DNA from: Patescibacteria group bacterium
GTDB taxonomy: Bacteria; Patescibacteriota; Minisyncoccia; UBA6257; 2-01-FULL-56-20
Direction of reading: 5' to 3'
NCBI GenBank assembly: GCA_038078595.1
Contig: JBBTYR010000033.1
Coordinates: forward strand, 1 to 11,918
Length of the DNA stretch: 11,918 nt
Below are positions 696-10,778 of the stretch, piece by piece. The translations under genes and the position numbers were made by a program. The number at the start of each line of letters is the position of its first letter. Within the stretch, counting starts at the first letter, position 1. Below the pieces are notes generated by a model. The model was not told where the DNA came from and searched no databases. It saw only the letters and a program-made list of their open reading frames with translations.

Positions 696-801
696 TTAGG
701 TTGTTGTTGGATGCAAAGAAAGAAAACGATGACGGCCGTTATCGATCAATACAAGCCAGACGTTCAGGTTACATCATAAAAGTTAATTAACGTCAAGATT
801 A

Positions 802-830
802 TTGACATTATTCAACATTTCTATTATCCT
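802..830 (+). promoter_or_regulatory. candidate promoter for the downstream operon (TTGACA-N17-TATCCT)
   Basis: A perfect -35 TTGACA at 802-807 is followed by a weak -10 TATCCT at 825-830. It sits about 90 nt upstream of the RBS at 901-914. Confidence 0.35.
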
Positions 831-921
831 GTAGCCGGTTCTTTGTCATATGTTTTTATAAAATAACGGTTAGTACTACTGATTTAACTGGACAAACAGC
901 AAGGAGAAAGGAGGCTCGAAT

Positions 922-1173
922 GTGGTAGGCGCTCTATCGATCGTGGCCAAGGTTCTGAAGGTTGTTCCCGAGCGTAACTATGCGGTGACTCTTCCCAACC
1001 AAGAGGTTCTGGGCGTCGAGGGATCAATAACTTTCTCTCTTACCAAAGAAGTTTGGGAAGGAGAAGGTGTTCCTCGCGAAGGTCAGCTAGTGGTCTTGGA
1101 GGACATCGCACAAACGGGTAGGGGATGGCGAGCTTACAAAGCTCGCGCAGTACGACCAGAAGATCAAACCTAA
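922..1173 (+). CDS. small hypothetical protein (83 aa), first gene of the flotillin operon
   Basis: GTG start lies 7 nt after a strong SD (aaggagaaaggagg, 901-914). The ORF ends 18 nt before the next gene. No recognisable motif was found. Confidence 0.5.
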   Translation: MVGALSIVAKVLKVVPERNYAVTLPNQEVLGVEGSITFSLTKEVWEGEGVPREGQLVVLEDIAQTGRGWRAYKARAVRPEDQT

Positions 1174-1191
1174 GAGAAAGGAGCAAGGAGA

Positions 1192-1794
1192 ATGAAGACG
1201 GTAGTTATCGCCGTCCTTGCGTTGGCGCTCGTTGTCGCTGTTCTCTGGGGGTCTTGGGCCTATGAGGAATCCAAGAAGCCCGTGCAGACAGTGGTTCTCA
1301 AGAGCCCGACCAACGACCTTTTTGTGGTAACTGTAAAACACAAGGAGGGGGACGACATTTTAATCCAGTGTGATGAGGATGACTTCCAGGAAGCTTTCGA
1401 GAAGTTTCGAAATTTCTTGGGGGTGGAGGTGGAACCGATTGAGGTTCCTGGTGGAGCGATGTTTTTTGCTATGCCACCTACCGAAGTGCCGGAAAAATTA
1501 GAACCGGCCAAGCGGGCGGTCATCGAAGTCTTGAAACGGCATTCGCCGCGAAGAGTCATCTTGATCGCTCATCCCGACTGTCTTCTCTACGACGTGGTTG
1601 GGGCTTGGGAGAATCAGGCCGAAGAAGTTGAAAACCGTCAGAAGGCTGACCTCGAACGTGCTAGGGACGTGATTCGGACTTGGTTTCCAAAAACCAGGTC
1701 CATCGAGATCTACTACGCCGGAAAGCGTGGTGACACGCTCGCCTTCAACCCCCTGCCGGACTTAACCATAACGCAGGAGGTGACTCATGATTGA
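1192..1794 (+). CDS. membrane-anchored beta-carbonic-anhydrase-like paralog (divergent, probably non-catalytic)
   Basis: 200 aa with an N-terminal hydrophobic anchor or signal (MKTVVIAVLALALVVAVLWGSWA). It shares LIQCDEDDF...VPGGA...RVILIAHPDCLLY...IEIYYAGKRGDTL with the 4175-4888 product (VVSCSDHRF...WPSGV...LILVAHEDCGAY...VRGFYADVIQGNEG). The Cys..His-x2-Cys spacing is 67 versus 69 residues. The Cys-x-Asp-x-Arg motif of β-CAs is degenerate here (CDEDD). It is preceded by the 15-mer AGAGAAAGGAGCAAG. Its stop overlaps the next start (ATGATTGA). Confidence 0.55.
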   Translation: MKTVVIAVLALALVVAVLWGSWAYEESKKPVQTVVLKSPTNDLFVVTVKHKEGDDILIQCDEDDFQEAFEKFRNFLGVEVEPIEVPGGAMFFAMPPTEVPEKLEPAKRAVIEVLKRHSPRRVILIAHPDCLLYDVVGAWENQAEEVENRQKADLERARDVIRTWFPKTRSIEIYYAGKRGDTLAFNPLPDLTITQEVTHD

Positions 1795-2398
1795 CTGGGC
1801 TGGTAATTTGCTCTCACAGGGAATGTCATTACTCGTGTTTGCCGCCTTAGCGATATTGGGAGCGGTTGTCTCAATCGTTTCCATGATCTTTGGAGGCGAC
1901 CACGACACTGACCACGACTTCGATCATGATGTTGGTCATGGCGGAGACGGTCATCATGGCGATCACGGAGATCACGATAGCGGCATGGGTTTAGGTGGCT
2001 GGCTTCTTTATCCCGTCATGTCCGTTCGAGGGATGTCGCTTCTAGCGACGGGATTTGGAGCCTTGGGTTTCATTACCTATTACATGACCCAGAAACTCCT
2101 TTTCTCATGTGGTGTAGGTACTCTCTCGGGTTGGATTTTTGCCCTTATCGGCTTCGTGCTGATCCGGGCGTTCAAGAAGCAACAATCGAACTCATTGGTT
2201 TTCAACGAGACCTTGATTGGCAGGGAAGCAATGGTTACCACCTCTATTCCGGGAAACGGGATGGGCGAGGTGACGTTTGTGATTCCTGGCCAAGGTCAGT
2301 TCACTCGTACGGCTACTTCAAACAAAGTAATTCGAAGCGGCCGGCCGGTGAAGATTATCCGAACCTTCGGCTCCAACGTGGAAGTCGAGGAACTCTAA
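1787..2398 (+). CDS. nfeD: NfeD-like membrane protein (short NfeD/YuaF family, C-terminal OB-fold) with a His/Asp-rich insert
   Basis: 203 aa with TM segments and a C-terminal beta-barrel-like region (GREAMVTTSIPGNGMGEVTFVIPGQGQFTRTATSNKVIRSGRPVKIIRTFGSNVEV) typical of NfeD partners of SPFH proteins. It sits immediately upstream of the flotillin gene. SD AGGAGGTG precedes the ATG. The insert reads GGDHDTDHDFDHDVGHGGDGHHGDHGDHDSG. Confidence 0.75.
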   Translation: MIDWAGNLLSQGMSLLVFAALAILGAVVSIVSMIFGGDHDTDHDFDHDVGHGGDGHHGDHGDHDSGMGLGGWLLYPVMSVRGMSLLATGFGALGFITYYMTQKLLFSCGVGTLSGWIFALIGFVLIRAFKKQQSNSLVFNETLIGREAMVTTSIPGNGMGEVTFVIPGQGQFTRTATSNKVIRSGRPVKIIRTFGSNVEVEEL

Positions 2399-2439
2399 CT
2401 CGAGGTGGCCCCCAGAAAGGCCAGAGAAAGGAGCAAGTA

Positions 2440-4101
2440 GTGTCAACTATATTAGGGGGATTATTCATCCCCGTCATGATCATCGCTGTCGGTATTGCGT
2501 TTTTGTCCGTGGCCATGATGGTTGCGCGGAACTACAAGAAATGTCCGCCCAACCAAGCCATGATTCTAACTGGTCGCAAGCGTAAGGTCTCGGACGGTCA
2601 GAGTGGAACTGTTGAACAAGGTTTCCGAACAGTCGTTGGTGGCGCGGCGCTCAGAATGCCGCTCCTTGAACGCATCGATTACATGTCCCTTTCTGTTTTT
2701 CAGTCGGAGTTCAGCGTACAGAAAACTCCGAACGTCGATGGTGTGGCTGTGAACGTTGATGCGGTAGCAAACCTCCGCATTTCCTCTCAGCCCAACATCT
2801 TGGCGATCGCTGTCAGTCAACTCTTGGGTAAGACACCCGAAGAGATCGAGATAATTTGCAAGAACACCCTCGAAGCGCAACTGCGGCAAATCGTCGGCAC
2901 TCTGACCATCGAAGATATGGTCAGAGACCGCGAGAAGATCAGTCAGCAAGTGGTCAACGTCGCGAAGCCCGAGTTGGAAAAGACTGGTATTGAGCTGGTC
3001 AACTTCAACATCAAGGGCATCAGCGATGCGCTGGGTTACATTGAGGCTCTTGGCAAGACCAAGACCGCGCAGGTCAAACGCGACGCCGAGATTGGCGAAG
3101 CCGAGGCTCAGCGTGAGTCGACAATCAAGGCTTCAACGGCCCGTCGCGAAGGAGAGGAGAAAAAGCTCGAAAACGACCAGGCTATTGAGCAGGCCAAGCG
3201 CGACCTCGAAGTGAAGAAGGCGGATTTGAAAGTCGAAGTCGACACCGCCCAAGCTAAGGCCGAACTGGCCGGAGCGCTTGCCAAGGCCGATCTACAGAAA
3301 GACCTCAAGGCCCGTGAAGCTTCCGTCGACGCCGCGAATGCTCGCGCTCGAATCGAGGTAGCTGAAGAAGAAGCCAAGTGGGCCGAGAAGAAGCTGGTTA
3401 CCGAAAAGATCAGGCCAGCTGAAGCCGAGAAGCAAGCCTCTATCATCAAAGCCGAAGGCGAACAGCAAGCTTCAGTTATCAAGGCCGAAGGCGATAAGCA
3501 AGCCGCGGTCATCAAGGCCGAAGCTACGAAGGCGACAGCCGAAGCTGAAAAGTCCAGGCTACAGTTCGTGGGCGAAGGCGAAGCGCTTGCCGAAGCCGCT
3601 TTGAAGCGTGAGCTTGGTCTTGCCGAAGCCGAAGTTGTTCAGAAGAAGGGCGAAGCCGAAGGCGCGGCCATTCAGGCCAAGCTCTTGGCTGAAGCCATGG
3701 GTTTGCTGAAGAAACAGGAAGCTTTGGCTCAGATGACCCCTGCGGCCCGCACGGTCATCATTCTCGAGATGTTGCCGCAGATCATCGAACACGCTGGAGA
3801 CGCTGGCGAAAAGATTTTCGCCGCGATGTTCGAGCAGGTGGGAGCCGGCTTGGCTCGCATCGATTCGGTCCACATGGTTGATCTGGGTGGAGGAAATGGC
3901 AACGGAAATGGTCCCGTGGCGAACTTTGCCATGAACATTCCAAAGATCGTTTTCGGTGCCCTGCAGCAACTCAAGGCGCTGGGCATTAATGTCGATGAGA
4001 TTTTCGGCAAACTAGGCATCAACATGGACGACTTGATCGGCGTTAACTCGCCCAAATCGACAATTCATGCTCCGATCGAAGTTGCCGAACCCGTCAGTTA
4101 A
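2440..4101 (+). CDS. floT: flotillin-like SPFH/band-7 protein (FloT/YuaG type)
   Basis: 553 aa from GTG 2440, preceded by AGAGAAAGGAGCAAG. The ORF-track start at 2107 overlaps nfeD and lacks an RBS. It has an N-terminal TM anchor, an SPFH core aligning to B. subtilis FloT (…LTIEDMVRDREKISQQV…IELVNFNIKGISDALGYIEALGKTKTAQVKRDAEIG…), a long Ala/Glu/Lys coiled-coil with 11-aa repeats, and a GGGNGNGNG tract near the C-terminus. Confidence 0.9.
   Translation: MSTILGGLFIPVMIIAVGIAFLSVAMMVARNYKKCPPNQAMILTGRKRKVSDGQSGTVEQGFRTVVGGAALRMPLLERIDYMSLSVFQSEFSVQKTPNVDGVAVNVDAVANLRISSQPNILAIAVSQLLGKTPEEIEIICKNTLEAQLRQIVGTLTIEDMVRDREKISQQVVNVAKPELEKTGIELVNFNIKGISDALGYIEALGKTKTAQVKRDAEIGEAEAQRESTIKASTARREGEEKKLENDQAIEQAKRDLEVKKADLKVEVDTAQAKAELAGALAKADLQKDLKAREASVDAANARARIEVAEEEAKWAEKKLVTEKIRPAEAEKQASIIKAEGEQQASVIKAEGDKQAAVIKAEATKATAEAEKSRLQFVGEGEALAEAALKRELGLAEAEVVQKKGEAEGAAIQAKLLAEAMGLLKKQEALAQMTPAARTVIILEMLPQIIEHAGDAGEKIFAAMFEQVGAGLARIDSVHMVDLGGGNGNGNGPVANFAMNIPKIVFGALQQLKALGINVDEIFGKLGINMDDLIGVNSPKSTIHAPIEVAEPVS
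3421..3531 (+). repeat. three tandem ~33-bp coding repeats inside the flotillin gene
   Basis: The DNA repeats …caagc-tc-atcaa-gccgaaggcga-… encode QASIIKAEGEQ / QASVIKAEGDK / QAAVIKAEATK. Confidence 0.6.
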
Positions 4102-4122
4102 GCTTGTAACCGACTGAACGTG

Positions 4123-4148
4123 CCCAGGGGATCACAAAGTCTCCTGGG
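4123..4148 (+). promoter_or_regulatory. intercistronic hairpin between the flotillin and β-CA genes
   Basis: cccagggga-tcacaaag-tctcctggg forms a 9-bp stem including one G·U pair. The shared 15-mer leader follows. It may be a partial terminator or processing site that tunes distal expression. A similar GGCC hairpin sits at 2406-2423 before the flotillin leader. Confidence 0.3.
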
Positions 4149-4174
4149 CGCTAATTTTAGAGAAAGGAGCAAGG

Positions 4175-4888
4175 ATGAACCCAGACCCGAATTCATCGTT
4201 CCCGGGATCACGGCGAGCGAACCCAGTTCGAACCACACTTGTTCGGCCAACATTGAAGCCAGCGCTTCGACAGGAAGCTCACGGTTCAACCGACGAACAC
4301 GAAGATCCAAGTCATCCCACTTCGGTTCATAGTGAACACGAAACCAGTCACCCTGAACCGATTCATCCTATGTCGGGTGAAGATCTTGTGCAGCATGGCT
4401 ACACAAGCCCGATCCCTTGGGTGAACGCGAAGGCCGATTGTCTCGTAGTTTCCTGTAGCGACCACCGGTTCGAAGACCAAACGCGCGAATTTCTAATCCA
4501 CGGCTTGGGTTTCCAAAACCCGCACGTTTTGCAGTGGCCAAGTGGTGTCACTATCGCGAGCGGACTCGCGGTTCTGACCGGGTCTCTCCCAAAAGCCTTC
4601 GATCTCCTTTTCCAAAAGGCGTTGAAGGTCACTCATGCGACCAACTTGATACTCGTGGCGCACGAAGACTGTGGAGCTTACAAAGATGGTGATCTAGTCA
4701 ACAGGATTGCCCGTCGCTTCACTGGAAAATCAGTTCGAGAAATCCAAATCATGCACCTTCAGGATGCGGTTATAGCGCTTCGGCCGACGCTCCGAGGTGT
4801 CACGGTGAGAGGTTTCTACGCCGACGTGATTCAGGGAAACGAAGGCGAGCACGTCAACTTCAAAGAAATATCAGTAGTACATAGTTAA
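4175..4888 (+). CDS. beta-class carbonic anhydrase-like protein with an N-terminal His/Glu/Pro-rich disordered extension
   Basis: 237 aa. The C-terminal ~150 aa carry both β-CA signatures: VVSCSDHRF (Cys-x-Asp-x-Arg) and DLLFQKALKVTHATNLILVAHEDCGAY, a near match to the second PROSITE β-CA pattern ending G-H-x2-C-G. The C-terminus has a β-CA-like VRGFYADVIQGNEG. The N-terminal ~85 aa are low complexity (HGSTDEHEDPSHPTSVHSEHETSHPEPIHP). It is preceded by AGAGAAAGGAGCAAG. Confidence 0.55.
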   Translation: MNPDPNSSFPGSRRANPVRTTLVRPTLKPALRQEAHGSTDEHEDPSHPTSVHSEHETSHPEPIHPMSGEDLVQHGYTSPIPWVNAKADCLVVSCSDHRFEDQTREFLIHGLGFQNPHVLQWPSGVTIASGLAVLTGSLPKAFDLLFQKALKVTHATNLILVAHEDCGAYKDGDLVNRIARRFTGKSVREIQIMHLQDAVIALRPTLRGVTVRGFYADVIQGNEGEHVNFKEISVVHS

Positions 4889-4896
4889 AACATTCA

Positions 4897-4924
4897 AGCC
4901 CTCAAGAAATTGGGGGCTTTTTTT
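4897..4924 (+). terminator. rho-independent terminator of the flotillin operon
   Basis: agccctcaa-gaaa-ttgggggct forms a 9-bp stem with one mismatch and is followed by T7. It lies 9 nt after the stop at 4888. Confidence 0.75.
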
Positions 4925-4987
4925 CTCTCTTGCCCCAAAGCCTAAAATTAAATAGAATCCAATTGACAGATTTTTAGTTTATTAGAT

Positions 4988-5060
4988 GGGCCTATAGTTC
5001 AGTGGTAGAACGCCTCGTTTGCAACGAGGAGGCGGGAGTTCGATTCTCCCTTGGTCCACC
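4988..5060 (+). tRNA. tRNA-Ala(UGC): tRNA-Ala (anticodon UGC)
   Basis: The cloverleaf is acceptor GGGCCTA/TTGGTCC, D-arm GTTC-AGTGGTA-GAAC, anticodon arm CCTCG-TTTGCAA-CGAGG (anticodon TGC), and T-arm GGGAG-TTCGATT-CTCCC. The G3:U70 alanine identity pair is present. The discriminator is A and CC is encoded, followed by G. There is one U6·U67 mismatch in the acceptor stem. Confidence 0.85.
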
Positions 5061-5345
5061 GAAATTTCAAAGTACTCGCTTAAAGATTACTGGACCGAAG
5101 TGACGACCACTCATCACGCGTTCTTGTCTGATCCGGCTCATAACATCTTCTTTATGCCAGGCGGTGAGGGCGGCTACATTTTCTCCTACGAGGAGAACAA
5201 CTTAACCCTCAAAAAAGCGGTGAGCCAAATCCGTTCGCGCCGCGCCATCTACATGAATGATTATTTGTACGTGGTAGGCGATGATCGAGTGGTGGTTCTA
5301 AACGAAAAGAATTGGGAAACCGTAAAAGAGCTAAAGTTTGAGTAA
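5061..5345 (+). pseudogene. probable C-terminal gene fragment with no credible start or RBS
   Basis: The frame reads open from inside the tRNA. The protein-like sequence (…GYIFSYEENNLTLKKAVSQIRSRRAIYMNDYLYVVGDDRVVVLNEKNWETVKELKFE) has only an internal Met at 5155 and no SD. It resembles the tail end of a beta-rich protein. Confidence 0.3.
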
Positions 5346-5445: not shown

Positions 5446-6327
5446 GTGGCAAAAAAGAAGCAAAGAAAGATCAACGCGAAACCATTTTTGGCACCACCCG
5501 GAAAACGAGTGTCAATCAAGGATTACGATCCCGGCTCCACTGGTGGCCTCACTAAGTCCGCTGCGCTGAAGATCCTTGAAGTTAATTCGCGGAGAATTGC
5601 GGAACTCCAAGAAATTCTTTATGCGGACGGTACTCGTTCCATGTTGGCGATTTTTCAAGGCATGGACGCCGCTGGCAAAGACAGCACCATCCGCCGGGTC
5701 ATGGATTGCATAAATCCGATGGGGATCCAGGTCCACAGTTTCAAATCTCCCTCGGCAGAAGAATTGGCTCATGACTACATGTGGCGGTGCGTGAGGGGCC
5801 TCCCCGAGCGCGGCAAAATCGGTGTCCATAACCGCTCTTACTACGAAGAGACAGTCGTGGTTAGAGTTCATCCCGAGATTTTGAAAGCGCAGCATCTGCC
5901 CGACGATCTGAAAGACAAAGACATCTGGACTCGCCGTTTCCGGGAAATCGTCAATTTCGAAAGATATCTCACCGACAATGGCACTGTCGTTCTCAAGTTC
6001 CTCCTGAACGTTTCAAAGAAGAAGCAGGGGAGGCGCTTCCTCGAGAGAATCGACACCCCCGAAAAGCGTTGGAAGTTCTCGCTCGACGATATTGCCAAAC
6101 GAGCGCTCTGGAGTGAGTATATGCGTGCCTACGAAGAGGCAATCTCCGCGACGAGCACGAAAGCCGCTCCCTGGTACATCGTTCCCTCTGACAACAAGTG
6201 GTTTACCGCCGCTTTAATCTCAACCGTCATTGTCTCTGTGCTTGAGTCAATGAAACTCAAGTACCCGACTCTTAGCGTTGGCGGCGATAAACGTCTCGCT
6301 ACTGCGAAGAAGCAACTCAAGAAGTAA
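5446..6327 (+). CDS. ppk2: polyphosphate kinase 2 (PPK2 family polyphosphate:nucleotide phosphotransferase)
   Basis: 293 aa from a GTG start. It has the Walker A motif (FQGMDAAGKDSTI) and the PPK2 motifs (HDYMWRC, VHNRSYYEE, KFLLNVSKKKQGRRFLERIDTPEKRWKFS). Confidence 0.9.
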   Translation: MAKKKQRKINAKPFLAPPGKRVSIKDYDPGSTGGLTKSAALKILEVNSRRIAELQEILYADGTRSMLAIFQGMDAAGKDSTIRRVMDCINPMGIQVHSFKSPSAEELAHDYMWRCVRGLPERGKIGVHNRSYYEETVVVRVHPEILKAQHLPDDLKDKDIWTRRFREIVNFERYLTDNGTVVLKFLLNVSKKKQGRRFLERIDTPEKRWKFSLDDIAKRALWSEYMRAYEEAISATSTKAAPWYIVPSDNKWFTAALISTVIVSVLESMKLKYPTLSVGGDKRLATAKKQLKK

Positions 6328-6330
6328 ATA

Positions 6331-6368
6331 AAAAGCCGTTCAGGTACCTACCGGAACGGCTTTGTTTT
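6331..6368. terminator. bidirectional rho-independent terminator between convergent ppk2 and NUDIX genes
   Basis: agccgttc-(12-nt loop containing GGTACC)-gaacggct forms an 8-bp stem. It is flanked by an A-run upstream and ttgtttttt downstream. Confidence 0.7.
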
Positions 6369-6794
6369 TTACGTTTCTTTTCGGACGAAATCCTTAATCG
6401 TCCCATCTGCCACCCTGTATTCATCCGTCAGAAACTCTTCTTTGGTCACCCATCGGTATTTAGTGATTTTTCCACCATCCGGGTTCTTTGTGATATCAAT
6501 CTCACCCGAAGAAATCTCGCAAAGGTAGGTTACACAACAAACCCAACGCTTACTGTTTGTTCCCACCGCCCAGTAGTATCCCATCGGACGAATTATTTTT
6601 ATCTTGCAGGCGATCTCTTCGAGCACTTCTCTGTTTAGAGTTTCCTCCGGTGACTCTCCCGGTTCCACCCTGCCTCCTGGGAATGTCCAGATAGAGCCAA
6701 TCGAAGACTTCTGTTCTAGTATTAAAAATTTTTCGCCATCGATAACTAAACCCTTTACCGAAATCCGATAATCTTCCACGACTCCTCCTTTCAA
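6369..6794 (-). CDS. NUDIX hydrolase
   Basis: The Nudix box is GGRVEPGESPEETLNREVLEEIAC (GX5EX7REUXEEXGU). The ORF track gives a TTG start. A GTG five codons downstream sits just after AAAGGAGGAG and is the more likely start, giving about 136 aa. Confidence 0.8.
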   Translation of the reverse strand: MKGGVVEDYRISVKGLVIDGEKFLILEQKSSIGSIWTFPGGRVEPGESPEETLNREVLEEIACKIKIIRPMGYYWAVGTNSKRWVCCVTYLCEISSGEIDITKNPDGGKITKYRWVTKEEFLTDEYRVADGTIKDFVRKET

Positions 6795-6816
6795 GTTACC
6801 TAATTAGTCTAGTTTA

Positions 6817-6845
6817 TAAGTATCACCGATAAAGCCGGTGGTCAA
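6817..6845 (-). promoter_or_regulatory. candidate promoter for the NUDIX gene (minus strand TTGACC-N17-TACTTA)
   Basis: The reverse complement of 6840-6845 is TTGACC, followed by a 17-nt spacer and TACTTA. Confidence 0.35.
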
Positions 6846-6858
6846 TCTTATAAAACAA

Positions 6859-6888
6859 AACCGCCAATATTATCGAGGCGGTTTTTTA
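6859..6888 (-). terminator. rho-independent terminator for the minus-strand gene 6897-7322
   Basis: AACCGCC-(11-nt loop)-GGCGGTT forms a 7-bp stem with T/A runs on both sides. It lies directly downstream (minus sense) of the stop at 6897. Confidence 0.65.
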
Positions 6889-6896
6889 GTCCCAAA

Positions 6897-7322
6897 TTAA
6901 TTTACAATTCGCATGAGTCGAGCACGACCTCCCCATTTCCGGTCCAGCCACCTGAAGCCGACATACCAGTCCTTACCATTCCAGCTTAGGCTAAGAACCC
7001 TTCGGTCGCCGGCTTTATCCTTGCCCACGGTCCCCGTGAAGACCAGACAGAAGGCTCGCCAGCTTGGATCGATCTTGTCCCGATTGTCGAAAAGAGTCCT
7101 GGCCAACTTCTTTCCGTGGGGTGTTCCGAGATCAGCTGCGCGAACCTCAAGCTTTTCCCCATTGATGCAATCCTCCCCGGTTTTCAAAAATGGGATTGCC
7201 TCGAGGGTGAAGTTTTTGCCATCTTGAAGCGAGGTGTCTTCAGTATCTCTCGCTACTTCCCAGCTTGGATCCAGGAGCTCTTGACCAGAACTGTCAGAAA
7301 CAAGAACACTCATTGTCGACAC
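6897..7322 (-). CDS. hypothetical protein (141 aa)
   Basis: The ORF is clean and bounded by its own promoter and terminator. The AAAGGAGGAGTAGTG leader suggests a possible GTG start 3 codons upstream of the ATG. No motif was recognised (…LSLSWNGKDWYVGFRWLDRKWGG…). Confidence 0.55.
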   Translation of the reverse strand: MSTMSVLVSDSSGQELLDPSWEVARDTEDTSLQDGKNFTLEAIPFLKTGEDCINGEKLEVRAADLGTPHGKKLARTLFDNRDKIDPSWRAFCLVFTGTVGKDKAGDRRVLSLSWNGKDWYVGFRWLDRKWGGRARLMRIVN

Positions 7323-7358
7323 TACTCCTCCTTTGTTAAGTTACTGTTTATCGGATGC

Positions 7359-7386
7359 ATACTAATATTTTTAAAGATTTTTGTCA
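7359..7386 (-). promoter_or_regulatory. strong minus-strand promoter (TTGACA-N16-TAGTAT) for the 6897-7322 gene
   Basis: The reverse complement of 7381-7386 is TTGACA, and the reverse complement of 7359-7364 is TAGTAT. Confidence 0.55.
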
Positions 7387-7439
7387 ATCACACTCACTAG
7401 TTAGCCTTTCAAATACTTTTGGCATAGCATTATTAAATC

Positions 7440-8906
7440 ATGTCCTTAGAAAAACATTTCGTCCAATTTCGAAAAAATACCGTTGGTTATAACCAACGCT
7501 TCGAATCACCATACGGCAAGAAAAAACTTATCTACGCCGACTGGACGGCGAGCGGGCGATTATACAATCCCATTGAAAAAATAATCTCGAAGAAAATCGG
7601 CCCTTTTATAGGCAATACCCACACCGAGGTCACGGTCACTGGGACCGCCATGACTAGAAGCTATCACGAGGCTCAAAAAATTATTAAACATCATGTTAAT
7701 GCGAGCGAGAGTGACGTTTTAATTGCGGCTGGTTCCGGTATGACCGGTGCCGTAAATAAACTCCAAAGAATTTTAGGTTTAAAACTCCCGGAAAAACTGG
7801 CTAAATACACACGCATTCCCGTCGCCCTCCGTCCTGTGGTTTTTATCACCCACATGGAGCACCACTCTAATCAAACTTCGTGGCTAGAAACCATTTGCGA
7901 CGTAGAGATTATTCCACCTGGGCGCGATGGTTTAGTGAGTTTAGATAATTTCAAACAACTTCTTAAAAAACATAAAAACCGAAAACGGAAAATCGCCGCC
8001 GTCACTGCCGCTTCAAACGTAACCGGCATCGAGCCTCCAGTTCACAAAATCGCCAAGCTCATTCACCGAAGTGGAGGGCTCTGTTTCGTTGACTATGCCT
8101 GCGCCGCGCCCTACGCGAAAATCAATATGCACCCGTGCGACCCGCAGGAAAAGTTGGACGCCATATATTTCTCGCCCCACAAATTTCTTGGCGGCCCGGG
8201 AACCCCCGGTATTCTGATCTTTGACTCAAAACTCTACTCAAACAAAGTCCCCGATCATCCTGGTGGCGGCACTGTCCTCTGGACTAACCCATGGCAAGAG
8301 CATCAATATCTCCCGGACATCGAAGCCCGAGAAGATGGCGGCACTCCGCCCTTCTTAGGCACCATTAAAACTGCTCTTGCGATTAAACTCAAGGAAAAAA
8401 TGGGTGTACAAAATATTTTAGCTCGGGAAAAAGAAATTTTACAAACCCTTTTCCTCGCCATGAAGAAAACAAGAAATCTCCATATTCTAGCGGGGGAGCA
8501 TGTCGATCGCCTTGGCGTGATTTCTTTCAATATTGAAGGGCTTCACTACAACTTAGTTTCAAAATTGTTAAACGACCACTTTGGCATCCAAACAAGAGGT
8601 GGTTGCGCCTGCGCTGGCACTTACGGCCACTATCTTCTAGGAATTAGTCGTGAGGCCTCCCGAAAAATTACCCGCCGACTCCGCCATGACGATCAGTCTT
8701 TGCGACCCGGTTTTGTTCGTCTTTCTATCAACCCCACAATGTCAAATCAAGAAATCTCATTCATTGCGCAAGCGCTCAAAGAAATCGCCGAAGATGGTAG
8801 AGCCTGGTCCGACGATTATAGGTACAACGCAAAAACCAATGAGTTTACCGCCCGCAAATTGAGAAGCCCGGGGCCGATAGACACGGACAAAATTTTTAGC
8901 CTCTAA
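7440..8906 (+). CDS. class V aminotransferase-fold PLP-dependent enzyme (cysteine desulfurase/selenocysteine lyase-like)
   Basis: 488 aa. It has the PLP-lysine motif FSPHKFLGGPGTPGILIFD (SxHK…GP.G.G), HMEHHSNQTSW, and a C-terminal RGGCACAG active-site-Cys-like segment. There is no obvious SD upstream. The start codon is uncertain and the transcript may be leaderless. Confidence 0.75.
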   Translation: MSLEKHFVQFRKNTVGYNQRFESPYGKKKLIYADWTASGRLYNPIEKIISKKIGPFIGNTHTEVTVTGTAMTRSYHEAQKIIKHHVNASESDVLIAAGSGMTGAVNKLQRILGLKLPEKLAKYTRIPVALRPVVFITHMEHHSNQTSWLETICDVEIIPPGRDGLVSLDNFKQLLKKHKNRKRKIAAVTAASNVTGIEPPVHKIAKLIHRSGGLCFVDYACAAPYAKINMHPCDPQEKLDAIYFSPHKFLGGPGTPGILIFDSKLYSNKVPDHPGGGTVLWTNPWQEHQYLPDIEAREDGGTPPFLGTIKTALAIKLKEKMGVQNILAREKEILQTLFLAMKKTRNLHILAGEHVDRLGVISFNIEGLHYNLVSKLLNDHFGIQTRGGCACAGTYGHYLLGISREASRKITRRLRHDDQSLRPGFVRLSINPTMSNQEISFIAQALKEIAEDGRAWSDDYRYNAKTNEFTARKLRSPGPIDTDKIFSL

Positions 8907-8975
8907 CTTTGACTCTCGCGGAAATTTTGCCTACTATTTCTCTAGTCACTTAAACGCTAAAAAAAGGAGGTCTTC

Positions 8976-9815
8976 GTGAAACAGGGTAGTGGGCAGAAGT
9001 TAGCTGAAGGGAAGACAAAGATCATTTGGGCCAACCCTAGTTCCAAAACCGAAGTTCTGATTGAGAGCAAAGACGATATTACTGCCGGTGATGGCGCGCG
9101 AAGGGATCTCATCGTAAGCAAGGGCGCTCTTTCAACTACTGTCACCTGCAACGTCTTTCGACTCCTAGGATCTAAAAACGTCCCCAACCACTTTCTTCAT
9201 CGTGTCGGTTCGACAACTTTCGCCGCCCAGCGAGTTCAGATGATTCCTATTGAAATAGTCACTCGTCGCATTGCGACCGGCTCCTATTTAAAGAGGAATC
9301 CGGAAATTCCAGAAGGGACGCGTTTCAATAATCTTGTCATCGAGTTTTTCTTGAAAGACGACGCCAATCACGATCCCATGATTTTTTGGGATCAGGATAA
9401 ATCCGAATACCAACTCTTTGACCCTCGTCAGTCCCTATCCGTCGGTCCCACCAGGGTTTTGCCCGAACTATTTGATAGCCCCCCCATCTTCCCGGCTGAT
9501 TTTGACGAGATGGGTTTTCTCGCTAGAACCTGCTTTGTTGCCATCGAAGAGGTCTGGGAGAATCAGGGAGTCACTCTTGTTGATCTGAAAATTGAGTGTG
9601 GCCTTGGTTGCCAACCACCCTATAGCAACCATATCATTGTGGCCGATGTCATAGATAACGACTCGTGGCGCATCTGGCCCCAGGGCGACAAGGCCCAAAT
9701 GAAAGACAAGCAAGTCTATCGTAACTTGGGCGACATCACCCCAGAAGCCCTAGTCGCCATTCGCGATAACTATCGATGGGTAGCGGACGCAACGGAAAAA
9801 TTCCTACCAGTTTAA
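8976..9815 (+). CDS. purC: phosphoribosylaminoimidazole-succinocarboxamide (SAICAR) synthase
   Basis: 279 aa from GTG after AAGGAGG. It aligns to E. coli PurC at GKTKIIW/GKAKTVY, TAGDGAR/SAGDGAR, MIPIEIVTRRIATGSYLKR/MVPVECVVRNRAAGSLVKR, DANHDPMI/DAMHDPMV, LVDLKIECG/LVDFKLEFG and RIW/RLW. Confidence 0.9.
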   Translation: MKQGSGQKLAEGKTKIIWANPSSKTEVLIESKDDITAGDGARRDLIVSKGALSTTVTCNVFRLLGSKNVPNHFLHRVGSTTFAAQRVQMIPIEIVTRRIATGSYLKRNPEIPEGTRFNNLVIEFFLKDDANHDPMIFWDQDKSEYQLFDPRQSLSVGPTRVLPELFDSPPIFPADFDEMGFLARTCFVAIEEVWENQGVTLVDLKIECGLGCQPPYSNHIIVADVIDNDSWRIWPQGDKAQMKDKQVYRNLGDITPEALVAIRDNYRWVADATEKFLPV

Positions 9816-9821
9816 ACAAAA

Positions 9822-9853
9822 AACCTTCGGTTAAGAACCGAAGGTTTTATTTT
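9822..9853 (+). terminator. rho-independent terminator after purC
   Basis: aaccttcggtt-aag-aaccgaaggtt forms a perfect 11-bp stem and is followed by ttttatttt. Confidence 0.8.
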
Positions 9854-10091
9854 GAAAAACAATCAACTTCCACTATTCCAGAAAACACCCCATTACCACT
9901 CATTTGCTTTGGAAAGCCGGATGGTAATAGTTATCCACATTCCCCCCCCACCCCCTTTGATAAAATTAAAGGTAGGAAAACTCCACCTTCATTTTCCAAG
10001 CAATTTGGACTTTCGGGTCTTTAGTAATGAAGGCAAAGGTCGTTACGCCTAAAACTCAGTTTTCGATAGCCTTAGGCGTTTATCAAAAAAT

Positions 10092-10778
10092 ATGGTTATT
10101 CAGGACTTATCAGCAGTTATAGTTGGATCGCTCCAGAACCTTTGGTTAGGATTTTCAGGTTTCCTACCAAACTTAATTGGCGCTCTTGTCATTCTGATCA
10201 TCGGTCTCATCTTCGCCGCTTTTTTTGGCACCTTGATCGAAAAGATCTTTATGGCTATCCGACTCGATACCTTCTTGGGCAAACTTGAGATCGCCCCCTA
10301 TTTTGAAAGGGGAGGATTAAAGCTTAGAGGCGCCAGATTCTTGGGTCAGTTAACGTATTGGTTTATTTTAATTGGCTTTTTGCTCGCCGCCTCCGATCAG
10401 CTTAATCTCTTTGCCTTTTCTAGCTTCCTCGGTCAGGTTGTTTTCTACATCCCGAACGTTATCGTTGCGGTCTTAATCATGCTAGCCGCCGCGTTCCTTG
10501 GAAACTTCCTTAGGGGAGTGGTTAAAGCATCCGTTAAGGGCGCCCGAATGCATAGCGCCAATTTTCTTGGCTCATTGACCTGGTGGTCGGTTGTTGTCTT
10601 TGGCTTCTTGGCTTCGTTGGTTCAGCTAAACATCGCGCCAAGCATCATCAACACCGTCATCACCGGTTTCATCGCCATGCTGGCGCTCGCCGGAGGCCTA
10701 GCCTTTGGCCTGGGAGGGAGGGACTATGCGGCCCATCTTATCAGTAGGCTTCGCGAAAACACCGAAACCAAGATGTAG
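10092..10778 (+). CDS. membrane protein built from three 'conserved TM helix' repeats (MscS-associated TM_helix family)
   Basis: 228 aa. It contains three repeats of the pattern LPNLIGALVILIIGLIFAAFFGTLIEKIF…, IPNVIVAVLIMLAAAFLGNFLRGVV… and APSIINTVITGFIAMLALAGGLAFGLGG…. These match the conserved TM-helix repeat found in small mechanosensitive-channel-like proteins. There is no SD and the start is uncertain. Confidence 0.65.
   Translation: MVIQDLSAVIVGSLQNLWLGFSGFLPNLIGALVILIIGLIFAAFFGTLIEKIFMAIRLDTFLGKLEIAPYFERGGLKLRGARFLGQLTYWFILIGFLLAASDQLNLFAFSSFLGQVVFYIPNVIVAVLIMLAAAFLGNFLRGVVKASVKGARMHSANFLGSLTWWSVVVFGFLASLVQLNIAPSIINTVITGFIAMLALAGGLAFGLGGRDYAAHLISRLRENTETKM

Follow-up and report, generated by a model that had tools for sequence, protein, structure and literature searches.

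Do the two carbonic anhydrase (CA)-like proteins encoded on either side of an NfeD-flotillin gene pair belong with that pair, and what could they contribute to it? The question is raised by a stretch of 11,918 nucleotides from a Patescibacteria group bacterium (contig JBBTYR010000033.1), referred to here as the window. SPFH proteins build membrane assemblies, shaped like domes or clamps, in which client proteins are held, and NfeD is their operon partner (PMC11222466, PMC12624060, PMC2636767). Bacillus subtilis yuaF-floT belongs to the sigma-W regulon, with alkaline shock among the inducing stresses, and in the literature consulted NfeD is the only flotillin operon partner described as conserved across lineages (PMC2636767). 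The function of bacterial flotillins is debated; they have been proposed to act as microdomain scaffolds, as holders of unfolded proteins or as regulators of membrane fluidity. The original prediction had held a CA link to be undescribed, and in agreement with this a literature search for a connection of flotillin or NfeD with carbonic anhydrase found no relevant paper. The presence of CA-like genes in the operon therefore appears to be new, whereas the NfeD-flotillin pairing itself is known.

Organization of the transcription unit

The region 922-4888 on the + strand is one transcription unit with the gene order ORF0-P1-NfeD-flotillin-P4, where P1 and P4 denote the upstream and downstream CA-like proteins. 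Its features are as follows.

802-830, + strand: promoter-like site TTGACA-17-TATCCT 5' of the first gene (consensus scan, 10 of 12 matches; a pattern match alone)
922-1173, + strand: ORF0, 83 aa, from the ORF list, predicted soluble, no known domain, own Shine-Dalgarno sequence
1173-1187, + strand: 15-nt repeat AGAGAAAGGAGCAAG with Shine-Dalgarno sequence, copy 1, just 5' of the P1 start codon (exact DNA match)
1192-1794, + strand: P1, 200 aa, membrane-anchored, β-CA-fold domain
1787-2398, + strand: NfeD, YuaF-type short form, 203 aa, overlapping the end of P1 (PF01957 and YuaF 2k14 profile match)
2423-2437, + strand: repeat AGAGAAAGGAGCAAG, copy 2, 5' of the flotillin GTG (exact DNA match)
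2440-4101, + strand: flotillin of FloT/YqiK type, 553 aa, GTG start (Band_7 and FloT models)
4120-4151, + strand: stable hairpin with a 13-bp stem in the flotillin-P4 spacer
4159-4173, + strand: repeat AGAGAAAGGAGCAAG, copy 3, 5' of the P4 ATG (exact DNA match)
4175-4888, + strand: P4, 237 aa, soluble, His/Glu-rich disordered N-terminal tail (residues 1-67) and β-CA-fold core (68-237)
4896-4927, + strand: intrinsic-terminator-like hairpin and T-run closing the unit (sequence)

All four main open reading frames were found in the order, at the coordinates and with the tight or overlapping spacing originally described, the flotillin lying in the frame 2107-4101. P1 and NfeD overlap by 8 nt, and the other gaps among these four genes are 41 and 73 nt. 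The single terminator proposed to close the unit was likewise present, past P4. A tRNA-Ala gene is located at 4988-5060, beyond this terminator. The repeat AGAGAAAGGAGCAAG occurred in three exact copies against a chance expectation of 0.61 (at up to 3 mismatches). The same ribosome-binding sequence before P1, flotillin and P4, the P1/NfeD overlap and the single terminator together point to co-expression. The spacer region 4100-4180 had a folding energy of -31.3 kcal/mol (z -4.7), and its hairpin is kept, with base changes, in L001, the closest genome, and in L016. As a partial terminator or RNA-stability element, it may tune expression of P4 relative to flotillin.

ORF0 gave no match to Pfam but is 96% identical to its counterpart at the same position in Parcubacteria Gr01-1014_20. 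Homologs detected with jackhmmer immediately precede P1 in L010 and NfeD in L025; in L024 the homolog lies 3.5 kb past P4. ORF0 probably opens the operon and belongs to the module as an accessory component.

The middle genes proved to be the NfeD-flotillin pair that had been proposed. The flotillin consists of an N-terminal membrane segment, an SPFH/Band_7 domain and an Ala/Glu/Lys-rich coiled coil with flotillin region. Its GTG start at 2440 was read from the sequence, and the resulting 553 aa equal the gene called in L001. It matched Band_7 (PF01145) with 88.7 bits and E 6.1e-25 (cut-off 23.6), and PF15975 Flot with 21.2 bits and E 3.3e-4 (cut-off 27). The NCBIfam FloT model aligned over nearly the full length (E 4.4e-70), and at 237 bits against an equivalog cut-off of 700 the protein is, judged by this score, a family-level relative of FloT and not an equivalog.

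In NfeD, three hydrophobic segments are accompanied by a loop rich in His and Asp (residues 37-70) and by a partner-binding domain of OB type at the C terminus. The window protein itself reached 16.2 bits with PF01957 (E 0.012; cut-off 29.1), 11 of 12 homologs matched this model (best 6.8e-9), and the family profile aligned with the soluble domain of B. subtilis YuaF (2k14) with E 5.7e-8. In the window, and wherever a cassette includes sufficient upstream DNA, NfeD lies directly 5' of the SPFH gene and is co-oriented with it. Of the 34 residues of the loop, 8 are His and 10 are Asp; the loop is conserved in 12/12 partners and, by the positive-inside rule, is probably cytoplasmic. In NCBIfam it weakly matched the His-rich loop of DmeF, a CDF exporter (E 0.0037). 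The loop was considered as a feature specific to CA-linked cassettes and rejected as such, since L030 has it without CA-like genes.

P1 and P4 as divergent members of the β-CA superfamily

Single-sequence searches with P1 and P4 against Pfam, NCBIfam and PDB yielded sub-threshold or spurious matches, so that family profiles and structure prediction were needed. The original prediction had called the two proteins clear paralogs. For the two sequences alone this was overstated, as evident from the weak BLASTP alignment (22% identity over 87 aa, E 0.017). The relationship itself was confirmed when the family profiles were compared with hhalign (probability 96.4%, E 1.3e-9, 146 columns), and the motifs listed in the prediction were paired exactly: QCDEDDF/SCSDHRF, VPGGA/WPSGV, ILIAHPDC/ILVAHEDC and IEIYYAGKRGDTL/VRGFYADVIQGNEG.

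Classical Pro_CA (PF00484) had been named as the family, and the lack of a significant match to its HMM as counting against the assignment. Neither window protein matched significantly: P4 reached 13.9 bits (E 0.066) against a gathering cut-off of 25.7, and P1 gave no match. The nearer Pfam family turned out to be PF20393 Pro_CA_2, and this link is transitive, via homologs. P1 itself scored 17.1 bits (E 0.0067; gathering cut-off 30) and P4 gave no match at E up to 10, whereas PF20393 was matched by 11 of 13 P1 homologs and by 62 of 80 distant P4 relatives (≤50% identity), with a best E of 4e-15. Of the same 80, 26 matched PF00484; among close P4 homologs 30 of 31 did so, weakly (best E 9e-5). 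P4 had no NCBIfam match. It agreed with PROSITE PS00705 in 9 of 12 specified positions and with PS00704 in 4 of 7, neither signature being complete, and P1 matched neither meaningfully. Other evidence places both proteins in the β-CA superfamily as very divergent members closest to Pro_CA_2, namely the profile alignment (E 1.3e-9), the residues aligned with Escherichia coli Can and the invariant P4 residues C94, H163 and C166. Both have the β-CA fold. The P1 profile compared with Can alone was not significant (E 0.3), and its assignment follows from the link to P4 and Pro_CA_2 and from the fold.

Alignment of the P4 family with Can by hhalign placed CSDHRF on CSDSRV and AHEDCG on GHYGCG. Cys94, Asp96, Arg98, His163 and Cys166 thus correspond to C42, D44, R46, H98 and C101 of Can, which are the zinc ligands and the Asp-Arg dyad. 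By this comparison P4 was shown to retain the complete β-CA catalytic residue set, a Cys-His-Cys site plus the dyad, just as had been read from C-x-D-x-R and H-x-x-C-G. The five residues are invariant in 31/31 close family members (CSDHR). Among the 80 distant relatives C94, H163 and C166 are the sole invariant columns, and D96 and R98 are kept in at least 90%. The dyad is lost in the cassette homologs from L025 and P0060 (CSSEK/CSSEQ), implying that part of the clade, at least, can do without catalysis. Further residues, C89, H97, H117 and H194, are invariant in the flotillin-linked P4 clade and not conserved in the wider family. Classical β-CAs are also characterized by an R-N-x-A-N region and a substrate-pocket Gln. 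According to our reading of the alignment, P4 and P1 have PSG and PGG in place of the former, and the Gln is not conserved. With these second-shell differences, CO2 hydration by P4 is not guaranteed.

The His/Glu-rich tail ascribed to P4 was confirmed (residues 31-66 include 7 His and 6 Glu) but is clade-specific and outside the conserved module. It is predicted to be disordered, and its conservation stops at close Parcubacteria relatives; in homologs beyond these it is absent, or acidic and unrelated. Longer P4 relatives (P0054, P0060, P0050, P0126 and others) were considered as domain fusions, an idea that was dropped because their extensions are N-terminal, disordered and of low complexity.

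P1 comprises an N-terminal transmembrane helix (residues ~2-27), a disordered linker (29-51) and the domain (55-190). It retains Cys60, His127 and Cys130, which are invariant in the P1 family and pair with the zinc ligands of P4 in the profile alignment. The predicted absence of the CxDxR dyad from this copy holds throughout the family: all members have C-[DNTSL]-E, with C-x-E (Glu62 in P1) invariant and never Arg at +4. P1 is most likely non-catalytic, with a structural zinc site in which the Glu would be the fourth ligand. In 19 family members the N-terminal flank of the helix always has 1-4 Lys/Arg and no more than one acidic residue, and in the C-terminal flank 2-5 Lys/Arg are offset by 1-5 Asp/Glu. 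Topology read from these charges is ambiguous and only leans toward N-in/C-out, so that the original placement of P1 across the membrane from P4 is no more than a possibility.

Recurrence of the gene arrangement and possible functions

A P4 homolog was found directly 3' of flotillin in 16 distinct cassettes from Parcubacteria, Komeilibacteria, Saccharibacteria and Solibacteraceae (window/L001, L016, L003, L004, L007, L008, L010, L012, L018, L019, L020, L022, L023, L024, L025 and L031). These homologs share about 33 to 84% identity with window P4, and in L003, L004 and L008 the flotillin-P4 gap is 2-13 nt. A P1 homolog precedes NfeD in 8 of 11 judgeable cassettes and is absent in L003, L004 and L025 (the Acidobacteria cassettes and one other). 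The conserved core is therefore NfeD-flotillin-P4 and not a symmetric four-gene unit; of the neighborhood originally drawn, this core recurs across phyla, whereas the P1 part does so incompletely. In several CPR lineages and in Acidobacteria, a P4 homolog was thus shown to be conserved as the third gene of this flotillin subtype. Chance adjacency, which the original prediction had allowed for, or a merely transcriptional neighborhood of unrelated genes without shared function, is effectively refuted by this recurrence. It could point to L013, one Saccharibacteria genome with a P4 homolog but no adjacent flotillin, and to the distant Pro_CA_2-like relatives of P4 examined in Melainabacteria (L014), which are unlinked to flotillin. 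The same order nevertheless recurs in many unrelated contigs from at least four named lineages, the genes around the cassettes differ between contigs, and the low protein identities argue against the recent transfer of a single mobile element. The identities of the parts and a functional linkage of NfeD-flotillin with P4-type CA-like genes are well supported.

On balance, we regard it as somewhat more likely than not that the operon combines a YuaF/FloT-type membrane scaffold with two divergent β-CA superfamily members, P4 being a putative hydratase at the scaffold and P1 a non-catalytic offshoot. P4 would be a zinc-dependent hydratase with β-CA-like chemistry, acting on CO2 or a small heterocumulene such as COS or CS2. 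We infer that P4 is co-produced with the cytoplasmic NfeD-flotillin assembly and works at that site, so that its activity would be confined to the flotillin membrane patch. P1 would be a membrane-tethered form of the same fold that kept the metal ligands and exchanged the dyad for the invariant Glu, and may serve as membrane anchor or partner. A cytoplasmic P1 domain could pair with P4 because β-CAs act as dimers; an outward-facing one would be an extracytoplasmic binding module. Any role of the module in CO2/bicarbonate or metal handling is speculation.

A less probable reading, although one to be taken seriously, is that both CA-like proteins are pseudoenzymes, in which the zinc site has a structural or regulatory role (as a redox or metal sensor, for instance), and that they serve as adaptors for scaffold assembly, client choice or membrane attachment without small-molecule catalysis. 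It would account for the loss of the P1 dyad in every member and for the L025 and P0060 homologs that stay in the cassette with CSSE[KQ] instead of CSDHR. The residues invariant only in the P4 clade may form a second site or an interface, and the tight coupling to flotillin suggests a stoichiometric partner. CA folds have been reused as structural subunits elsewhere, in the γ-CA-like domain of CcmM and the γ-CA subunits of plant complex I. Against this stands the conservation of the full catalytic set in all close P4 members and at 90% or more over the distant relatives, which is typical of selection on catalysis.

That the module handles metal (Zn, Ni or Co), with the NfeD loop, the P4 tail and the Cys-His-Cys sites buffering, sensing or delivering it at the membrane, seems unlikely to us. 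The composition, conservation and probably cytoplasmic location of the NfeD loop, its weak resemblance to DmeF and the 7 His in 36 residues of the P4 tail are consistent with it. The tail, however, does not extend beyond close Parcubacteria relatives, none of the cassettes includes a transporter or metal regulator, and the more distant NfeD-flotillin pair L030, which has the loop but no CA-like gene, indicates that the loop is not tied to the CA-like proteins. Similarly doubtful is an extension of the hydratase reading in which flotillin and NfeD form a membrane-attached nanocompartment for the CA-like reaction. P4 would sit in or on the dome and a non-catalytic P1 on the outer face, in the service of CO2/bicarbonate/proton (or COS/CS2) sensing or pH buffering. 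If true, a bacterial flotillin would for the first time have a defined enzymatic client and physiological role.

The recurring pairing suggests that bacterial flotillin has in P4 an enzyme partner not described before. A second conserved partner with a recognizable zinc-enzyme active site, in minimal-genome CPR bacteria as well as Acidobacteria, offers a concrete handle on whether the scaffold localizes an enzyme, which reaction is involved and whether flotillin is tied to pH or CO2 homeostasis. One operon provides a natural pair of a catalytic-looking and a dyad-less paralog. The finding also gives a first functional context to the uncharacterized Pro_CA_2-like branch, for which a literature search found no paper mentioning PF20393 and no member with tested function. 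Members of the family are few (among 1.84 billion, 19 cluster representatives at E ≤1e-30 and 349 at E ≤1e-3), so the impact would be conceptual rather than broad.

Comparison with known flotillin operons and β-CAs

The window shares with B. subtilis yuaF-floT(yuaG)-yuaI and E. coli yqiJ-yqiK, in which an SPFH2 flotillin is paired with an NfeD2 protein, a short NfeD (N-terminal transmembrane part, C-terminal OB domain) directly 5' of a flotillin of ~550 aa with an N-terminal membrane segment. Over the SPFH domain the window flotillin shares only ~25% identity with YqiK, and BLAST detected no similarity between window NfeD and YqiJ. A long His/Asp-rich loop sets the window NfeD apart from the YuaF/YqiJ systems. 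In B. subtilis, too, flotillin is followed by a small soluble enzyme-like gene; the gene in the window encodes a β-CA-fold protein, whereas the yuaI product is a GNAT acetyltransferase. The E. coli operon has no third gene and no CA gene downstream. Compared with both, the window adds the membrane-anchored paralog and the 83-aa ORF before NfeD.

Among sequence families the nearest is PF20393 Pro_CA_2 ("Putative carbonic anhydrase", uncharacterized), with its pattern C-S-D-G-R-F ... P-G-G ... H-x-x-C-G-x-Y. Carbonyl sulfide hydrolase (3vrk) and CS2 hydrolase (3ten) have the β-CA fold, with no sequence affinity past the shared motifs, and there was no evidence of sulfur-compound metabolism genes in the neighborhood. 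With the minimal "Cab" β-CAs (Methanobacterium thermoautotrophicum Cab, PDB 1g5c) and E. coli Can, the window proteins share a core of ~165 aa without a long N-terminal arm, and the P4 Cys, Asp, Arg, His and Cys match Can positions. Identity to Cab and Can is 13-20%, and both window proteins remain below the PF00484 threshold. They differ further in the P-S-G/P-G-G replacement of R-N-x-A-N, in the additional invariant Cys/His of P4 and in the absent dyad and the membrane anchor of P1. Finally, the genomic context of the CA-like genes is a flotillin operon and not one of carbon metabolism.

Organization of the operon

An ORF listing of the window revealed a single compact gene set on the + strand, from about 800 to 4930, in which a membrane-anchored β-carbonic anhydrase (β-CA)-like protein of 200 aa (P1) and a soluble one of 237 aa (P4) flank an NfeD-flotillin pair.

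Features of the operon and its surroundings
112-642: 176-aa Gly/Arg-rich protein with a treble-clef zinc finger (PF23477, E 1.8e-15), upstream of the operon
802-830: promoter-like site upstream of ORF0
896-910: degenerate copy of AGAGAAAGGAGCAAG ahead of ORF0
922-1173, + strand: ORF0, 83 aa, without a Pfam domain
1173-1187: AGAGAAAGGAGCAAG, copy ahead of P1
1192-1794, + strand: P1, 200 aa
1787-2398, + strand: NfeD-like gene, 203 aa, 8-nt overlap with P1
2423-2437: AGAGAAAGGAGCAAG, copy ahead of the flotillin gene
2107-4101 (frame), + strand: flotillin, start GTG 2440, 553 aa
4159-4173: AGAGAAAGGAGCAAG, copy ahead of P4
4175-4888, + strand: P4, 237 aa
4896-4919 onward: terminator-like hairpin with T-run, 3' of P4
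4988-5060: tRNA-Ala(TGC), after the operon terminator
5019-5345: 108-aa ORF overlapping the tRNA gene
5446-6327: PPK2 polyphosphate kinase
6369-6794, - strand: NUDIX hydrolase
7440-8906: class-V aminotransferase
8976-9815: SAICAR synthetase
10092-10778: membrane protein with two mechanosensitive-channel TM-helix motifs

The ORF listing and a hairpin scan agreed with the gene order, spacing, and terminator of the original prediction, which had missed two points: ORF0, the likely opening gene of the operon, and the precise start of the flotillin gene. This GTG was read from the ribosome-binding site and gives the same length, 553 aa, as the gene call in the nearest genome. The exact 15-nt repeat AGAGAAAGGAGCAAG holds a Shine-Dalgarno motif and occurs three times in the window (chance expectation, 0.61 matches), its 3' end lying 1-4 nt ahead of the P1, flotillin, and P4 start codons; the repeat may provide equal translation initiation for these three genes. 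The 73-nt spacer between flotillin and P4 contains a very stable hairpin with a 13-bp stem at 4120-4151 (folding energy of region 4100-4180, -31.3 kcal/mol; z -4.7). It is kept with base changes in two relatives (contigs L001 and L016) and may act as an internal attenuator or RNA-stability element.

The Parcubacteria Gr01-1014_20 relative carries the zinc-finger gene at the corresponding place. Because the ORF at 5019-5345 matched only the C-terminal end of Beta_propel (PF09826, E 6.6e-11), it may be a truncated gene remnant. The genes at 5446-10778, downstream of the operon, look like ordinary housekeeping genes.

Identity of the encoded proteins

The flotillin contained a clear SPFH/Band_7 domain (Pfam, E 6.1e-25) and matched the NCBIfam FloT model over nearly its full length (E 4.4e-70), with 237 bits lying below the equivalog cut-off of 700. 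The NfeD-like protein alone gave a sub-threshold match to PF01957 (E 0.012). Because this domain was matched by 11 of the 12 orthologous partners (best 6.8e-9) and the family profile found the solved soluble domain of Bacillus subtilis YuaF (E 5.7e-8), the two genes were assigned by homology as a YuaF/FloT-type NfeD-flotillin pair. YuaF is the NfeD partner of FloT in B. subtilis, and NfeD-flotillin pairing is well known (PMC2636767). Residues 37-70 of the NfeD protein (window 1895-1996) form a loop with 8 His, 10 Asp, and 10 Gly in 34 residues. Such a His/Asp-rich loop follows the first hydrophobic segment in all 12 partners examined, including that of the remoter locus L030, and it weakly matched the His-rich loop of the CDF exporter DmeF in NCBIfam. 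The positive-inside rule and the RAFKK stretch after the third segment point to a cytoplasmic location of the loop and the OB domain.

The relationship of the flanking proteins to β-CAs emerged from family profiles. As single sequences, P1 (PF20393 Pro_CA_2, E 0.0067) and P4 (PF00484 Pro_CA, E 0.066) both stayed under the Pfam gathering thresholds, their pairwise BLASTP match was marginal (E 0.017), and PDB sequence searches with each yielded no meaningful match. Profile-profile comparison of the P1 and P4 families gave a probability of 96.4% and an E of 1.3e-9 over 146 columns. The P4 profile aligned with E. coli β-CA (Can) at E 3.6e-5, placing CSDHRF on CSDSRV (Can C42/D44/R46) and AHEDCG on GHYGCG (H98/C101), and found weak β-CA matches in the PDB (1ddz, E 0.0018). 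Foldseek with full-length P1 again listed β-CAs, more weakly (best E 8e-4).

Of the 31 P4 relatives, the remoter ones measure 162-190 aa, and JGI names several "carbonic anhydrase"; the invariant residues of the set include D88, C89, C94-S-D-H-R-F-E100, H117, H163, and C166-G-A-Y-K170. Judged from this alignment, every residue class that defines the β-CA active site is kept in P4. The 13 P1 relatives share, among other residues, C60, E62, P86-G-G88, H127, and C130-L-L-Y-D134, and six more members from the fetched loci all kept C-x-E, PGG, and H-x-x-C-[LI]-x-Y-D. By the same reasoning, P1 keeps the metal ligands only; an invariant Glu replaces the Asp of the catalytic Asp-Arg dyad (C-x-D-x-R), and the Arg is absent. 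The original prediction was thus sound in the β-CA kinship, in its motifs, which the P1/P4 profile alignment pairs exactly as listed, in an altered upstream paralog, and in the identity of the NfeD-flotillin pair; at the Pfam level, membership falls short of the gathering thresholds, and the interpretation as a whole was partly supported.

The AlphaFold2 model of P4 (mean pLDDT 78) showed a high-confidence core and 67 disordered N-terminal residues. This tail (window 4175-4375) is rich in His, Glu, and Pro. Its occurrence is confined to close relatives within Parcubacteria; the remaining P4 relatives have no tail or unrelated acidic low-complexity tails, and the relevance of the tail noted in the original prediction is conjectural. 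The P1 model (mean pLDDT 70.7) comprised a TM helix (2-27), a disordered linker, and a folded domain (55-190). Across the P1 family, the N-terminal flank of the helix carries Lys/Arg with at most one acidic residue; the C-terminal flank carries as many Lys/Arg or more, offset by Asp/Glu. We lean slightly toward a predicted N-in/C-out topology, and the trans-membrane arrangement of the original prediction is conjectural.

The P4 profile was run exhaustively as an HMM against 1.84 billion cluster representatives and returned only 349 matches at E up to 1e-3, 51 at 1e-10, and 19 at 1e-30, which marks the family as rare. When 80 of these representatives were aligned, C94, H163, and C166 were the sole invariant columns, and D96, R98, P122, Y169, Q191, and A216 were at least 90% conserved; conservation in the family centers on the zinc triad and the dyad. 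Because 62 of the 80 matched PF20393 (best 4e-15) and 26 matched PF00484, P1 and P4 are best placed as divergent branches near Pro_CA_2 within the β-CA superfamily, not as classical Pro_CA. The common pattern was C-S-D-G-R-F ... P-G-G ... H-x-x-C-G-x-Y, of which P1 has PGG and H-x-x-C-x-x-Y without the dyad. The residues C89, H97, H117, and H194 of P4 (window 4439-4441, 4463-4465, 4523-4525, and 4754-4756) were invariant in the flotillin-linked clade and varied across the wider Pro_CA_2-like family; their role may be that of a second metal or redox site or of a contact surface for a partner. In the P4 homolog of contig L025 (5001-5492), which lies within a flotillin cassette, and in the protein P0060, CSSEK/CSSEQ replaces the CSDHR dyad motif. 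These look like natural dyad-loss variants of an otherwise catalytic-looking P4 paralog.

Conservation of the arrangement

Contigs encoding homologs were searched with the five window proteins. In 16 distinct cassettes, the gene directly after a FloT-type flotillin encoded a P4 homolog, in keeping with the neighborhood conservation anticipated by the original prediction.

Distinct cassettes with flotillin and P4 homologs
Window and Parcubacteria Gr01-1014_20 (L001, L002, L009), counted together
L016, L003, L007, L008
L004/5/6/11/21: Solibacteraceae, Acidobacteria
L010: Komeilibacteria; L012: Saccharibacteria
L018, L019, L020, L022, L023, L024, L025, L031/32

Identity to P4 in the cassettes ranged from about 33 to 84%, the surrounding genes varied by contig, and the flotillin-P4 gap shrank to 2-13 nt in L003, L004, and L008. 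Exceptions were a lone P4 homolog in one Saccharibacteria genome (L013) and distant Melainabacteria Pro_CA_2-like proteins with 29% identity (L014, L015, L027, L028). Upstream sequence was long enough to judge P1 in 11 cassettes: a homolog preceded NfeD in 8 (window, L007, L008, L010, L012, L022, L024, L031) and was absent from L003, L004, and L025. ORF0 homologs were found upstream of P1 in L010 and of NfeD in L025; in L024, one lay 3.5 kb downstream of P4. NfeD, flotillin, and P4 thus make up the conserved core, to which P1 is frequently and ORF0 occasionally added. The remoter NfeD-flotillin pair of L030 has no CA-like genes.

Proposed function and comparison with known systems

The operon thus combines an NfeD/FloT scaffold with two β-CA-fold proteins. 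Its genes point the same way, lie close together, share one translation-initiation sequence, and are found side by side in different phyla; adjacency by chance can effectively be dismissed. We propose that P4 would be a zinc-dependent hydratase with β-CA-like chemistry, acting at a cytoplasmic flotillin/NfeD assembly. In published work, SPFH assemblies are described as domes or clamps on the membrane that enclose their client proteins with the help of NfeD (PMC11222466, PMC12624060). P1, with a putative closed Cys2-His-Glu site, would be a probably non-catalytic, membrane-tethered partner. β-CAs are active as dimers, their active sites lying where the subunits meet, so a P1-P4 heterodimer would be attractive if P1 faced the cytoplasm; facing outward, P1 would form a separate extracytoplasmic module.

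A competing explanation takes the CA-like proteins as pseudoenzymes with purely structural or regulatory roles, for which one can cite the missing dyad of P1, the loss of the dyad in P4 variants (L025 and P0060 among them), and the clade-specific extra Cys/His of P4; the active-site residues kept in P4 speak for the hydratase proposal. The His-rich segments of the operon proteins speak for a metal-handling module; against it, the P4 tail is confined to one clade and the NfeD loop is also found where CA-like genes are missing. The CO2/bicarbonate or metal-handling function of the original prediction is accordingly conjectural. Analogy alone points to a physiological tie of the operon to pH or CO2 homeostasis: in B. 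subtilis, yuaF-floT is part of the sigma-W regulon, whose inducers include alkaline shock and other stresses (PMC2636767).

In the literature searched, no description was found of a conserved β-CA-like third member of a flotillin operon, of a membrane-anchored dyad-less CA-like paralog ahead of one, or of PF20393; carbonic anhydrase is absent from the principal published survey of SPFH operons in prokaryotes, and NCBIfam holds no model for P4. NfeD-flotillin pairs and β-CA-fold proteins are each ordinary. On these grounds the conserved CA-like partner in an NfeD-flotillin operon appears to be the new element, as the original prediction had supposed. The CA-like gene, from a rare family, offers a concrete, testable partner for a flotillin scaffold of debated function, and the operon provides a first context for Pro_CA_2-like proteins.
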